Below the pieces are notes generated by a model. The model was not told the DNA's origin, ran no database searches, and saw only the letters and a list, made by a program, of their open reading frames with translations. Below, in pieces: positions 3,168-41,385 of a stretch of 64,000 bases of DNA (positions within the stretch are counted from its first letter, which is position 1; every line of letters begins with the position of its first letter). The DNA comes from a virus, in IMG/VR virus record IMGVR_UViG_3300036770_006954, positions 64,001-128,000 of that record, one strand, 5' to 3'. A program made the position numbers and the translations under genes.

Positions 3168-4187
3168 TTAACAAGGTGTTTCGTTATTTATGAATCCGTT
3201 TCCATTTATCACCTCGAACGCAGATGTTCCATCTGACCAATAACCATCATTTACAGGTGTAGTCAACGAGGTATCTAAGAATAAAAATTCACCTGTTGTT
3301 GGCCCTTGTGGTTGTGAGCTACTTGAGTAAACATTAAATGTTGTAACACTTGTACAAGCATCAATTGCTGTTGCCCCTGAGGTTAATAGATACGACCAAT
3401 AAGATATTGTTGGTGTTGGTGTCATACTTGTTGTAGGTGTATTCGTCGGAGTTTCTGTTGGCGTTGAAGTAATGGACGCAGTCAAACTAACGGTCGGCGT
3501 ATTAGTTGGTGTTTCTGTATTAGTTGGTGTGTTTGTTGGAGTTTGTGTCAAGGTTGGACAAACTGAAATAAATAAGAAATTCCCTGAAGAATCAACTTCA
3601 ATAACAATACCATTGAAATTATAGAAACCTGTCATATTGATTGTTGCTGGTCCTGCAGGAACGTTCGAGAGTAAAGATACATCCCCCCAAACAGAGTCGT
3701 TACCATATACCGTAATTGGTCCATTGATATTACCACACGCATCTAATAAAGTTGAACCGCTATAAACACTGAATGGAGTCAATGCTGGCGGAGTTACGCT
3801 AGGTGTGGGTGTGTTAGTTGGTGTTTCAGACGGCGTTTGGGTTGGGGTTTGTGTATTAGTCGTAGTGTTAGTTGGTGTGTTTGTTGGTGTCTCTGAAGGT
3901 GTTTGTGTTGGTGTATTTGTTGGTGTTTCTGAAGGTGTTTGTGTTGGGGTTGGCGTGTTTGTCGCACTTGGAGTTGGCGACATAGCAAACGGAAAGGAAC
4001 CAAAATCTGTAACAGTAATGATTGTTGGCATTGCTGTAGAATAGGTACCATCTATCAACCAAATATTGCAGGCATGTCCTGCGGGAAGTAAAACATCGTA
4101 TACCCACATTTGATTCGAACACTCTTGATATGAATAAACACCATTTGAAGATGTGTTATTAGTTAAAAGATATTTTCTACACGCCAT
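3168..4187 (-). CDS. Thr/Pro-repeat virion surface protein with a duplicated small Cys domain
   Basis: [12 protein letters not shown] repeats; two SGxT..DAC modules; late motif upstream. Confidence 0.6.
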
Positions 4188-4243
4188 TTTTTCGTTTTTT
4201 TAATAAATATTATAATATTTCAAATTATTTCAAGTCTGACTTT

Positions 4244-7200
4244 TTAACTTGGTGTGACTGTCGGTGTGGGTGTTGGTGTCACTGAAGTTTCACTTGGTGT
4301 TGCTGTGGGAGTTGGCGTTGGAATAACAAGGTCATTTTCTACTTCAATACCAATGTATATTAATTCACCACTAACAAAGTTAGTAGATGCCGATTGAATT
4401 AATCCTATATTACCCGAAGGTGTTGCTCCCGAGACAGTTCCAAACACAAAACCGTTATCTGAACCATTTTCCCAATACTTCAACGAATTCGAATCACCAG
4501 AATAAATTACCGTTGTGCCCGATTGTGTCATTGTAAAGAAAATAGTGTTACCCGTAAACTCAGAAAAATAATCTAATCGGTCAACATCATCTGAATCAAA
4601 TGAGTTGAAATACACTCCACTATTAGGAGAATTCAATAAATTCGGGTCCGTGATACCATTATCAATTATTGTATTTCCAGAAGTTGGTAGTCCTGAAGGA
4701 GATGTAATAAAGTTATAAGGAGCCGAACTTTGAATCTGTACATCAACTAAAGTAGTCAAAGTAATAGGGTACGAACTTGTGAGAGTTACCGATTGGCTGA
4801 CACTCGAGTCTAACAGAATTGTTTGATTATTCAGAACTGTTACAGTACCAGGAGGGTCCTGAACTCTTAGTGACGCTAATAAAGGTGTACCATTACCTGA
4901 GGGGGTTGAAGACAATCCAAGAGTGATTGTGTAAATACCCGAACTAGGATTTGCAGTATTATCAGTGTCAGCAATGTATTGGTTTCCACCACCTGCCGCG
5001 GGACATGGCCAAGGATTTTGTGGACCTATAGGTAACGAATTCACGTAGAATGTCGGTCTAGGAATACTGTTTATAGTAACATCGGTTATACTGGTAAATT
5101 GACTACAGTTCGAGATGTATAATTCAATTGGTCCCGTTGTTTGAGTTGGCGTTTGAGTATGAGTTGGAGTATTTGTCGGTGTTTCAGTATTGGTAGGTGT
5201 TGGAGTCTGAGTTGGCGTTTCAGTATTTGTTGGTGTTGGCGTTTCAGTATTTGTTGGTGTTGGGGTTTCAGTAGGTGTTTCAGTTGGTGTATTTGTTGGG
5301 GTTTCAGTATTGGTTGGTGTTGGAGTTGGAGTTTCTGAAGTTTCAGTAGGAGTTGGTGTTGGAGTTTCAGTAGGTGTCTCTGTATTTGTTGGTGTTGGTG
5401 TTGGAGTTTCTGAAGTTTCAGTAGGTGTTGGAGTTGGTGTTGTAGGTGGTAAACAACAATCAGTATCATAAACAACACTGACAGGTGTTGAACCCGATAA
5501 TACAACCAACGAATCTTTTTCGAAACAAAACTCAAATCTGAATCTTACAGTATCAGGATATGTTGTAGCCGTCAGGGTTCGGTTGTAAGTGTAAAGTCCA
5601 TCGCAACTAGTCATTTGAACTATCGTGTCACCAGTTATTTCTACTGATACAAACTGATAACATTCGTCCAAAACACAAGTAGCTGTTGGAGTCGGTGTCA
5701 TTGTTTCCGTTGGTGTGGGTGTAGAAGTTGTCGAAGTTTCGGTTGGTGTCGGAGTTGGTGTCGGAGTTACTGAGGTCTCAGTAGGTGTTGGGGTCGGACC
5801 ACCACAACAATCAAGAGCAACATAATATGCATAAATTATCCCTCCACCACCATCCCAATAATTGATGAGAACTGGTGGTGTCGATAAACATACTAGTCGT
5901 CCACTATATCCTGAGATTTGAACGGTTTCGGTTCCACCACTACAGTAAGTGAATTCCCAAGTGGCACCTGAAGCAACACCTCCGAACACCTCATACTCCA
6001 AACAACCCGCACAAGGTTGAGTTAAAGTTGGTGTTGGAGTTGGTGTTTGTGAAGATGTAACACTTGGTGTTGGAGTTGGTGTTGGTGGTGGTGAACAAAG
6101 GGCGACTTCAGTAATTTCAATCCAATTATTGTAAATATTGATTGTTCCTTCACATAGGCAAGTGGTAAATACTTGATAAGCCTCAAGGGTGTAATCAATA
6201 ATATTACCATTACAATCAGTGGCAGTAAAGACCGCAGGAATCGGTTCCAAATTCCTGAAAGTATACTCAACACAATTACATGCCGTAGGTGTAATTGTTG
6301 GTGTTGGCGTGTTTGAGGAAGTATTTGTTGGTGTCGGAGTATTTGATGATGTTGCCGTTGGTGTTAAATTTGCAGTGACACTAACTGTCGGACTATTACT
6401 CGGTGTTGGAGTTATGAAAACATTTCTACATGGTCCTACTCTTAAAACGGTTATATCAGAACAACTTGATGTTGGTGGTACACAAGCACATACATTTACC
6501 GAATCGAATTGTGAGAAAACGCTCAATCCAAAATAAGAAGGCCCTTGGCTCACAAAATTTCCGTTACAATCAACCCAATTAACGTTTTCACCACATGGGG
6601 TCGCACCCGTGAAATAAAGTGTATAAGTTTGACAATCACAACCACTTGTAGTCGGTGTTGGGGTGTTAGTTGGAGTAACAGATGGTGTTACTGTGTTACT
6701 TGGTGTTTGTGTATTAGTTGGGGTTTGAGTGACAGTGGGAGTCTGTGTGACAGTTGGCGTGACTGAAGAAGTAGGTGTTGGGGTTGGTAAATTACATCCA
6801 GCACCCAAATTAGTTTGTGTTGTTAAACAACTTGTGATTACACAGTCCCCACATATACAAACATAAATTGTTGAACCCGATGTGAAAACATTATCAGTAT
6901 ACTGTGGGAAATCTGATGCCGATTTAGTAATTAGAGTTCCAAAACAATCGATGTAACTAATCGTGTTTGAACAATTCTCATTAAATGTAACTTCAATAGT
7001 TTTACACTCACAAGGTGTTTCTGTTGGCGTTTGAGTTGGGGTAGATGTCACTGTTTCTGTTGGGGTAACTGTTGGAGTTGCAGTCATAGATGCTGTAACA
7101 GAAGGTGTTGGAGAAACTGACACACCTTCACAACAGTTGTTATAGAAAGAAGAATTCAATATACGGTCACTGTTTGCGTCATAAATTGTGGTCCCTGAAA

Positions 7201-39849: not shown

Positions 39850-39870
39850 TATTTATAAAGAAAAAGTATA

Positions 39871-41385
39871 ATGTCAATTTATCGGTCGTATTTTAATAGA
39901 AACAATACTTTATTATCAAACCTTTACACCAACACCGCGAGAAATCCCGTGGTACAACTCAATTTTGGTAGTAGTGACCTTGTAGTCCCCAATTTTGGAT
40001 TCACCCGTTTTATATTTGATTTGGACTTAGAGGGTCTTGAAGAAATGATTGCCGATAAAGTTATTTCCACAGGTTGTACCACAGGAATGACACATACCCT
40101 TATGATGACAAATACATCATCGTTCGACGATGAACTCCTTAACACTAATATGAGTGACGGGAGAAAAAGAGCCACATCATTTGATTTAATACTTTTTAGG
40201 ATACCGAAATTTTCAGGGGACACAGGTTCACCACAAATATGGGACGAAGGTGTTGGGTACGATTATAATAATTTTGGAACTACCCAAAATGGACTTGCGG
40301 GAATGCAATCATCATTAGAACAACTAAACAATAAAAGTTTTTCTTTAAGACCATCTAACTGGTACCAAACAACCACCGTAACAAATTGGTCCGAACCAGG
40401 AATCTATAATAATAAAAACTCCCTAACAAGTCTTACAGGACTTAACTACTCATCAATTACAATAGTTGACGAACAAAGATTCGAATTGGGTAACGAAGAT
40501 ATCCAATTTGATATGACCGATGAGATAAACGGAATTTTAGACGGTTCAATCACAGGAGTAACAGGATGGGGTATTGCCTACAAACCCGATATTGAAAACA
40601 TTACAGGTTTAACAGAATCATACTCTGTTGGATTCTTCGGAAAATACACACAAACATTTTATCAACCATACCTTCTCACCAATTACGATGACTTGGTTAA
40701 AGACGACAGAAACCTTTTCCTAAAAAACCAAACAAACAAACTATACTTATATGTCTACCAAAATGGTGACTTTGCCAATTTAGACAATTTACCTGGTGTA
40801 AATATAGAAAACCAAAACGGGGACATTGTACAGGGGGGTAGTGGACTTACTACTTGTCAGGTAACAAAGGGTGTATATGAGGTAACCGTTCCGAATATAT
40901 TTGTGAATCAACCAACCCCGTGTCTATTTTACGATGTTTGGACAGGTCTTACAATCAATGGACAATCGTTACCTAATGTGACAAATCAGTTTGTTCTTCA
41001 AGCCTACAGTGCGGGAATTCAAATAGGTAGTAACTCACAAGAACCAAGTAAATATGGATTCAGTTTCTACGGTATTTTACAAAATGAAAAAATTCTCAAC
41101 ACCGAAATTCGAAAGATTGGGGTCGTGGCTAAGAAACAATGGACTTCTCAACATCAACTGGAGAACATTGACATCTACTATAGAGTTTATGTTAGAGAGG
41201 GGACAACTGAGGTTCAAGTACAGAATTGGACTCCTGTAAACCGTACTCCAAACGAATATTATTTCATATTTGATATGAGAGATAAGATACCGAATGAATA
41301 TTTTGTTGACATCCGTGTTAACACTAGTGGTGAAAAAGATATTTATAAGGACACGATTCAATTCCAAATTGTTAACAAGAAATGA
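39871..41385 (+). CDS. Putative virion structural protein
   Basis: Beta-rich 504-aa ORF; late motif at 39850-39857; many [ST]GxT motifs. Confidence 0.55.
   Translation: MSIYRSYFNRNNTLLSNLYTNTARNPVVQLNFGSSDLVVPNFGFTRFIFDLDLEGLEEMIADKVISTGCTTGMTHTLMMTNTSSFDDELLNTNMSDGRKRATSFDLILFRIPKFSGDTGSPQIWDEGVGYDYNNFGTTQNGLAGMQSSLEQLNNKSFSLRPSNWYQTTTVTNWSEPGIYNNKNSLTSLTGLNYSSITIVDEQRFELGNEDIQFDMTDEINGILDGSITGVTGWGIAYKPDIENITGLTESYSVGFFGKYTQTFYQPYLLTNYDDLVKDDRNLFLKNQTNKLYLYVYQNGDFANLDNLPGVNIENQNGDIVQGGSGLTTCQVTKGVYEVTVPNIFVNQPTPCLFYDVWTGLTINGQSLPNVTNQFVLQAYSAGIQIGSNSQEPSKYGFSFYGILQNEKILNTEIRKIGVVAKKQWTSQHQLENIDIYYRVYVREGTTEVQVQNWTPVNRTPNEYYFIFDMRDKIPNEYFVDIRVNTSGEKDIYKDTIQFQIVNKK

Follow-up and report, generated by a model that had tools for sequence, protein, structure and literature searches.

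An [ST]-[GA]-x-T motif on unrelated virion proteins of a group of distant T4-like phages: candidate surface signal or structural idiom

Does a tetrapeptide that recurs in unrelated structural proteins of a phage mark a site of protein modification? The question is raised by a 64,000-nucleotide stretch of viral DNA (hereafter the window), positions 64001–128000 of the 171.6-kb IMG/VR record IMGVR_UViG_3300036770_006954, which is ~57% complete. A sequence-only reading of the window had noticed [ST]-G-x-T in protein after protein of its structural genes and had proposed that it is a glycosylation sequon read by one of the phage's own glycosyltransferases (GTs). Genes for a gp23-type capsid protein, a T4-type portal and a large terminase identify the source of the window as a distant T4-like myovirus. 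Its hosts are probably Bacteroidota: the 80 best bacterial matches of its ClpB-like gene are nearly all from Bacteroidota (55–60% identity), matches that fit both a host in that phylum and the large aquatic phages of PMC12619734. Neither megablast with 22 kb nor tblastn with the 504-amino-acid (aa) virion protein discussed below found a match among 50,697 named phage records, and the major capsid protein (MCP) has distant named relatives only (Flavobacterium phage immuto and Microcystis phage Mel-JY01, 41–42% identity).

The analysis showed that the motif, with Gly preferred over Ala at its second position, is real, is specific to virion proteins and is carried by several unrelated folds; its positions turn over between lineages and are conserved within them. 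As to what it does, we tentatively favour a surface signal kept by selection, most likely an O-glycosylation acceptor for which the phage offers candidate enzymes.

An exact count returned the numbers that had been obtained by hand: 16 [ST]GxT in the 1644-aa protein, 16 in the 1193-aa protein, 7 in the 504-aa protein and 3 each in the 210-aa and 718-aa proteins (coordinates in Table 1). Two more were found in the 339-aa and one in the 188-aa protein. For comparison, Thr/Pro (TP) tracts were masked and residues were shuffled 1000 times, either globally or in blocks of 40 or 20 residues. The shuffle means were 2.7–3.0 for the 1644-aa, 2.5–2.9 for the 1193-aa and 0.6–0.8 for the 504-aa protein, and the observed count was matched by 0 of 1000 composition-preserving shuffles in each of these three top carriers, in which the reversed motif T.G[ST] occurred two, five and zero times, respectively. 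Over the whole virion module of the window, with TP tracts masked, there were 49 [ST]GxT against 10.6 expected (z 12.1); the 37 non-virion open reading frames (ORFs) held 3 against 3.0 expected, in line with the earlier remark that the motif is rare in the enzymes. The excess likewise lies outside the TP tracts, as had been claimed, for it survived their masking, and in the 1644-aa protein all 16 instances fall outside the linkers. The carriers are indeed unrelated: BLAST found almost no paralogy between them, the sole case being one 137-aa C-terminal domain. Not all instances are independent, since a few belong to a repeat consensus: that of the SprB-like repeats in a 1007-aa protein encoded upstream of the window, and that of the Cys-rich modules in the 1644-aa protein.

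Related patterns were counted in the same way. [ST]AxT was enriched 2.8-fold in the virion proteins of the window (17 against 6.1), and in the MCP insertion the SAIT, TAGT and SAFT singled out by the sequence-only reading were present, together with TGST. No enrichment was observed for [ST]GxS (7 against 9.4), and the reversed motif (~1x) and N-x-S/T (99 against 100.8, z –0.2) stood at chance in these proteins. The Bacteroidota-type sequon D-[ST]-hydrophobic, from which the motif had been said to differ, was not enriched either (29 against 31.7, z –0.5, in virion proteins; 24 against 23.5 in non-virion proteins), and the two are indeed distinct. When all 8000 patterns of the form a-b-x-c were scored over the 176 ORFs of the record, SG.T ranked first (59 against 17.8, P 1e-14) and TG.T third. 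The codons of the motif were mixed and matched genome usage; therefore there is no DNA-level word underneath.

The history of the motif was followed in the family of the 504-aa protein, which has >2900 metagenomic homologues. Close relatives (58–97% identity) kept most sites while the flanks and x varied, with swaps of S for T and of G for A (SGIT/SGET/SGLT, SGNT/TGFT/SGQT, TGMT/SAMT). Motif residues were somewhat better conserved than other residues of the same kind (S/T 0.92 versus 0.74, p 0.009; T 0.91 versus 0.71, p 0.05). Distant homologues were sampled as 100 cluster representatives of 27–58% identity (101 sequences with the query). Here six of the seven query sites kept the motif in at most 7 of the 101 sequences, and the Gly of the query motifs was retained at 0.14, versus 0.50 for other Gly. 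The mean per protein over the family was 2.05 motifs versus 0.33 expected (~6x; reversed motif 0.42), distributed over 84 different sets of alignment columns. A turn determined by the fold was thus not found, neither the motif positions nor the turn Gly being conserved across the distant homologues; judged from these alignments, the motif is not demanded by the fold.

In the tree of this family, a motif-rich clade B (187 motifs against 24.0 expected, 7.8x) is sister to a clade A with 18 against 8.9 (2.0x), the S, T and G contents of the two being nearly equal. At the motif columns of clade B, clade A has gaps or E, K, N or D; these are therefore variable, solvent-exposed loop positions. Several sites lie within lineage-specific loop insertions, and at some sites relatives carry N in place of the query's G. 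The exposed-loop location that had been proposed is supported in this sense, solvent exposure being read from the residues of the motif-poor homologues. P0127, a sister without any motif, and P0222, which has eight, both lie on short contigs; scans for related loci with P0127 and P0187 found no close relatives. Inside the motif-rich clade, the P0139-like lineage (loci L121–L126) had 2 motifs against 14.5 expected over six loci, a total that covers the 504-aa homologue and all neighbouring virion genes on fragments 13–28% complete. No avoidance is claimed for this lineage, since its loci nearly duplicate a single region and are low in the reversed motif as well. A search of these fragments for the 1193-aa homologue gave weak domain matches only.

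The 1193-aa protein behaved similarly. Twelve of its sites were kept in 120 homologues (58–97% identity); S and T again replaced each other, as did G and A, and x was free. Its N-terminal part holds 14 motifs in the query, and 17 (1.7 expected) and 6 (1.1 expected) in two other clade-B phages, mostly at positions other than the query's; the homologues in five clade-A phages have 0, 0, 0, 0 and 3. Whole-genome scans gave a consistent result: SG.T ranked first and TG.T second in G020 (complete, 310 kb; 71 against 20.8 and 66 against 22.0), and first and fourth in G021 (246 kb, 77% complete; 77 against 29.4 and 75 against 34.2). The carriers in both are orthologues of the same tail and baseplate proteins, and the excess is spread over at least 20 proteins and recurs in other genomes. 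In the complete clade-A genome G001, SG.T stood at 1.8x after three repetitive proteins were dropped, and TG.T was without excess. The [ST]GxT excess characterises the phage group as a whole. Its form differs between lineages in what may be called dialects, SA.T being at 2.6x in G021 and 0.6x in G020. An SA.T excess in G001 was discarded, as it was gone once three proteins were removed.

Elsewhere the excess was weak or missing. The structural half of the T4 proteome had 14 SG.T against 9.7 (1.4x) and 11 TG.T against 10.4 (1.1x), no excess, and a sample of 1026 ORFs of bulk Bacteroidota gave 1.4x and 1.1x. The nearest named relative, Flavobacterium phage immuto, was intermediate for TG.T (48 against 24.5). 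We conclude that the [ST]GxT excess is no general trait of beta-rich virions or of the host phylum.

A glycosylation acceptor would account for these properties as follows. Selection would keep [ST]-[G>A]-x-T where an exposed loop of an outer virion protein (fibre, baseplate, decoration) passes into a strand. There a cytoplasmic phage GT would read the motif in trans, with Ser/Thr at position 0 or Thr at +3 serving as its acceptor or recognition site. The particle surface would then carry O-linked glycans both on folded domains and on the Thr/Pro linkers. Reading in trans would explain why the motif is confined to the virion surface and why its positions turn over while its count is maintained, as well as the loop insertions and the dialects. 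A GT is the obvious reader because the phage has about a dozen of them (about 12 genes, at 1102–3077 and 16686–34829, flanked by the fibre and head/tail modules), along with genes for GDP-fucose and amino sugars that also adjoin the structural genes. Better candidates than the GT60 and GT25 enzymes at the end of the fibre operon would be homologues of the GT4, GT1-like and GT2 genes and of the 248-aa ORF of the glycan cluster (Table 1). It is possible, though doubtful, that the phage clade has a cytoplasmic O-glycosylation of its own, with [ST]-[GA]-x-T as sequon, lineage-specific forms of it and a co-evolving core GT as candidate enzyme. Such a system would belong to a widespread clade of freshwater T4-like and jumbo Bacteroidota phages; the number of sites would be under selection while their positions turn over, and lineages would differ in the form accepted (Ala or not; Thr at position 0 or not).

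A number of observations weigh against an acceptor read by a GT. The contrast between clades A and B is essentially a single phylogenetic contrast, and the individual zeros of clade A carry little weight because only ~0.3 motifs are expected per protein. At 114 loci, the number of motifs in the 504-aa homologue did not predict an excess in genes up to 10 kb away (Spearman 0.17, p 0.065, and no signal among independent pairs), a test of low power because the genes nearby are mostly non-carriers. The motif-rich proteins of clade A are a BspA-type leucine-rich repeat (LRR) protein and a repetitive coiled-coil fibre, and for this reason the high clade-A counts are attributed to repeat consensus. 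No GT tracked the motif across the compared genomes, GT60 and GT25 following the TP tracts instead. The content of the glycan cluster varies widely among relatives, and four genes are common to all five genomes compared (homologues of the GT4 gene, the GT2_5 domain, the GT1-like gene and the 248-aa ORF); the shared GTs do not discriminate since clade A has them too. We know of no described sequon of [ST]GxT form, and full-text literature searches returned no paper on this motif or on any phage sequon. Thus, whereas enrichment, restriction to the virion, spread over non-homologous folds and placement in exposed loops all stood, the proposal that one of the phage's GTs reads the motif found no support, GT60 and GT25 co-occurring with TP tracts and the shared GTs being present in the motif-poor clade as well.

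The remaining points against it concern local context, which also fits a purely structural turn. Among 104 motif instances across the genome, position –1 was hydrophobic or aromatic in 57% versus a background of 35%, Ile was enriched 2.6x directly after the motif, and charged residues were depleted. The x was nearly any residue but Pro, with K, R and E rare. At +3 Thr was enriched and Ser was not, as beta propensity would have it. In the AlphaFold2 (AF2) model of the 504-aa protein, to which structural mapping applies (predicted local distance difference test, pLDDT, 88.6; a model of residues 1–660 of the 1193-aa protein, with 12 sites, gave pLDDT 30.8), sites 67, 115 and 245 lie in loops, and at 71, 228, 324 and 358 the S and G are coil and the x and T open a beta strand.

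It is nearly as likely as a glycosylation acceptor, therefore, that nothing reads the motif and that the clade builds the tight loop-to-strand junctions of its fast-evolving, Thr-rich surface domains with [ST]-G-x-T as a structural idiom (ST-turn with Gly, then a beta-branched Thr that opens the strand). The N that replaces G in some relatives is typical of left-handed turn positions, and related patterns occur in domain consensus sequences (the SprB-like repeats; the BspA-type LRR of a relative). Triple beta-spiral shafts have (S/T)-G-x-hydrophobic turns, and there, too, Ser/Thr-Gly stands at a turn before a beta strand in virion fibres; those turns, however, keep a fixed register in one repeat, whereas the motif here is scattered over globular jelly-roll, immunoglobulin (Ig)-like and Cys-rich domains and is missing from homologues of the same fold. 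A generic turn preference would also be expected in the phage's enzymes (3 versus 3.0), the T4 virion and bulk Bacteroidota; since it is absent from all of these and from same-fold homologues, the sister-clade proteins managing without the motif, a generic structural preference is excluded. A clade-specific one would have to be acquired in the same lineages by the jelly roll, the Ig-like domains, the Cys-rich modules and the baseplate proteins alike. The G/A swaps at several sites speak against a backbone conformation open to glycine only, and the difference between G020 and G021 in the acceptance of Ala is without obvious structural cause.

It is considerably less probable that the signal is read by something other than a sugar transferase, or acts directly: as the site of a non-sugar modification (e.g. 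phosphorylation), as a mark for an assembly chaperone, or through binding of host or mucus polysaccharide by the loops themselves, which are uncharged and rich in hydroxyls. A motif that is lineage-specific, position-independent and restricted to the virion requires some clade-specific selective factor, not necessarily a sugar transferase. For direct binding speak the jelly roll of the 504-aa protein, which is like a carbohydrate-binding module (CBM), with its Ig-like domains, as in adhesive decoration proteins, and the replacement of charged loop residues by S, T and G in the motif-rich clade. Binding leaves the strict order and spacing unexplained, the reversed motif being at ~1x, and no kinase or dedicated chaperone was present among the annotated genes of the window.

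More improbable still is that [ST]GxT is a second acceptor class of the GT60 enzyme (mucin-type O-GlcNAc) encoded beside the fibre genes. In Trypanosoma cruzi and Dictyostelium, GT60 polypeptide alpha-GlcNAc transferases act on Thr-rich mucin-like repeats, the known acceptors being Thr in Pro-rich mucin-like peptides (PMC3769586). In the window, GT60 and GT25 close the operon of the most motif-rich proteins, and the two were present in 6 of 6 long query-like records and in none of the 6 clade-A records, which include a complete one. The TP tracts suffice to explain this distribution: G007, G008, G020 and G029 have tracts and GT60 alike, complete G001 has neither, and the two adjoin in G007 (94.9–96.3 kb), in G008 (68.8–74.7 kb) and in the window (1102–9178, minus strand). 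Moreover, G021, in which SG.T ranks first and one protein has 17 motifs, showed neither GT60 nor a TP tract over its 246 kb, although at 77% completeness absence is unproven. The distribution supports a mucin-type O-GlcNAc(-Gal) modification of the Thr/Pro linkers as a putative system separate from [ST]GxT. In likeness to the known GT60 systems, a GT60 is here paired with Thr/Pro-repeat proteins, whose genes it adjoins, and GT25 could extend the sugar; the pairing accounts for the TP tracts and not for [ST]GxT, which is seen also in a relative in which no GT60 was found.

That composition, Thr/Pro tracts, repeats within proteins or paralogy produced the excess as an artefact is hardly credible and was rejected on the shuffles and controls run here. 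Although the carriers are Thr- and Gly-rich, some with repeated modules, and dropping the three top proteins cuts the genome-wide ratios to 2.1x and 1.5x, a 4–10x excess persists through TP masking, 20-residue block shuffles and the reversed-motif control. The excess is spread over at least 20 proteins and recurs in other genomes, with no paralogy of carriers beyond the one 137-aa domain.

Several known systems bear comparison with a glycosylation acceptor. To our knowledge, mycobacteriophages are the only phages whose particle proteins have been shown to be glycosylated, and an acceptor motif has not been described for any phage. Freeman et al. (2023, as cited in PMC12619734) are said to have located mycobacteriophage glycans, by mass spectrometry, on C-terminal extensions of capsid and tail-tube subunits. 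As here, phage GT genes lie beside structural genes and glycans are proposed on exposed virion proteins; the window differs in that its candidate sites are a defined tetrapeptide in the folded loops of proteins of the fibre, the baseplate and the decoration, that the host phylum is another and that the evidence comes from sequence. General O-glycosylation in Bacteroidota uses the sequon D-(S/T)-(A/I/L/V/M/T) on exported proteins in the periplasm. It resembles the present case in having a short sequon of 3–4 residues on many unrelated proteins and in the presumed host phylum. In contrast, tailed phages assemble their virion proteins in the cytoplasm, out of step with a system for exported periplasmic proteins, and the Bacteroidota sequon is unenriched here.

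TibC/AAH autotransporter heptosyltransferases (GT9-like) act on TibA and AIDA-I, where they modify Ser of the beta-helix repeats. The likeness lies in a cytoplasmic GT that decorates many Gly-adjacent Ser on a folded beta-rich adhesin. However, the TibC/AAH sites are confined to one repeat family, and a search for the GT9-like family PF01075 found no match in the 57%-complete record; neither did one for PF13844 (GT41, the family of OGT/NGT-type cytoplasmic glycosylation). The turnover of N-glycosylation sequons in animal viruses is similar in that motif number is kept while positions shift among variable exposed loops; motif, chemistry and host machinery are different, and the analogy is one of evolutionary pattern only.

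The carriers themselves are of the kind expected at a particle surface. The 1193-aa protein consists of a conserved N-terminal part of ~620–660 aa, a 190-residue Thr/Pro linker and a C-terminal Gly-rich domain (PF21722), and in its homologues the conserved N-terminus is joined to varied C-terminal domains (LamG-like PF13385, Gly-rich PF21722 and others), an architecture as in receptor-binding proteins with swappable tips. The jelly roll of the 504-aa protein resembles polysaccharide-binding modules (VIA Z 15.6 to 8wab_B and 13.7 to 7vbo_A), and the modelled architecture is that of an exposed decoration or adhesin protein. Orthologues of the 718-aa protein in close relatives have 3–5 [ST]GxT. 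In the 1644-aa protein the motif takes a varying position from one Cys-rich module to the next. These beta modules, 60–80 aa with a CxC-like pair at the start and a Cys at the end, number at least seven on the Thr/Pro linkers of that protein (residues ~500–1245), with others in 3168–4187 and 9214–9780; they had no Pfam match and are too divergent for pairing by BLAST. The glycan cluster is a very large set for a phage, and its GT10 and GT11 genes are fucosyltransferase-like. The 248-aa ORF is among the best-conserved genes of the phage group (41–78% identity, clade A included); it and other conserved unknowns had no PDB, Pfam or NCBIfam match. The GT1-like and GT2 transferases may have in it a partner that has escaped recognition.

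Two side observations concern repeat proteins of relatives. At locus L020:7714–8997 of clade A, a 427-aa BspA-type LRR protein has a repeat consensus that includes C-S-G-L-T-S, an example showing that repeat consensus alone can yield [ST]GxT counts. In G008 (complete, 321 kb; the record behind locus L072), the top tetrapeptide patterns of the whole genome were GA.G, QG.Q, PD.P and AQ.A at 6–7x expected, which points to at least one very large low-complexity or collagen-like repeat protein.

Table 1. Positions of the features discussed, in nucleotides of the window
Feature	Position	Strand	Remarks
Minus-strand operon	224–14026	-	From 5' end: 1193-aa, 210-aa, 188-aa, 1644-aa and 339-aa proteins, GT60, GT25, 293-aa ORF
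GT25	1102–1830	-	3' end of fibre operon
GT60 GlcNAc-transferase	1830–3077	-	3' end of fibre operon; PF11397, E 4.1e-68
Thr/Pro-linker protein, 339 aa	3168–4187	-	Small Cys-containing modules; 2 [ST]GxT, each directly before an 'xxDAC' module
Modular fibre/adhesin protein, 1644 aa	4244–9178	-	Cys-rich beta modules on Thr/Pro linkers; 16 [ST]GxT
Thr/Pro-linker protein, 188 aa	9214–9780	-	1 [ST]GxT (TGCT)
Fibre-operon protein, 210 aa	9792–10424	-	SGIT, SGTT, SGTT; 3 vs 0.5–0.7, p about 0.02
Baseplate/fibre protein, 1193 aa	10445–14026	-	16 [ST]GxT, 14 of these in residues 1–770
Glycan cluster, GTs	16686–35575	+	GT4-like, GT2_5-GT4 fusion, three GT2, GT10, GT11, GT1-like
Glycan cluster, other genes	16686–35575	+	Two DegT aminotransferases, GNAT, CmcI-type O-methyltransferase, GDP-mannose 4,6-dehydratase, epimerase/reductase, HAD-nucleotidyltransferase fusion
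GT4 of glycan cluster	16686–17900	+	Homologues in all five genomes compared
GT1-like of glycan cluster	32965–34020	+	Homologues in all five genomes compared
GT2 of glycan cluster	34023–34829	+	
ORF, 248 aa	34829–35575	+	Downstream of GT1-like and GT2, upstream of virion module in all relatives
Virion protein, 718 aa	35993–38149	+	First of plus-strand structural module; 3 [ST]GxT; 3 vs 0.4–0.5, p about 0.01
Virion protein, 504 aa	39871–41385	+	Jelly-roll CBM-like domain (1–273) and two Ig-like domains; 7 [ST]GxT
504-aa protein, motifs at residues 67 and 71	40069–40092	+	
504-aa protein, motif at residue 115	40213–40224	+	
504-aa protein, motif at residue 228	40552–40563	+	
504-aa protein, motif at residue 245	40603–40614	+	
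504-aa protein, motif at residue 324	40840–40851	+	
504-aa protein, motif at residue 358	40942–40953	+	
MCP, gp23-type (PF07068)	43595–45388	-	Insertion with TGST, TADT, SAIT, TAGT, SAFT
ClpB/ClpC-type AAA+ chaperone	59614–61638	+	Full-length, two-domain; phage-encoded

The phage group thus offers a statistically unambiguous, simple candidate motif on abundant and well-conserved carriers with thousands of metagenomic homologues, and because motif-rich and motif-poor relatives of the same folds exist together with a few conserved candidate enzymes, the question is directly testable. If the motif is not glycosylated, it illustrates cleanly how a structural idiom of one clade can mimic a sequon, and would serve as a useful warning. 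If it is, it would explain the large sugar gene sets of many aquatic phages and would bear on adsorption, on particle decay and on recognition by grazers or defences. Should the clade prove to have an O-glycosylation of its own, [ST]-[GA]-x-T would be the first sequon of phage virion glycosylation, and the particles would carry a glycan shield analogous to that of animal viruses.

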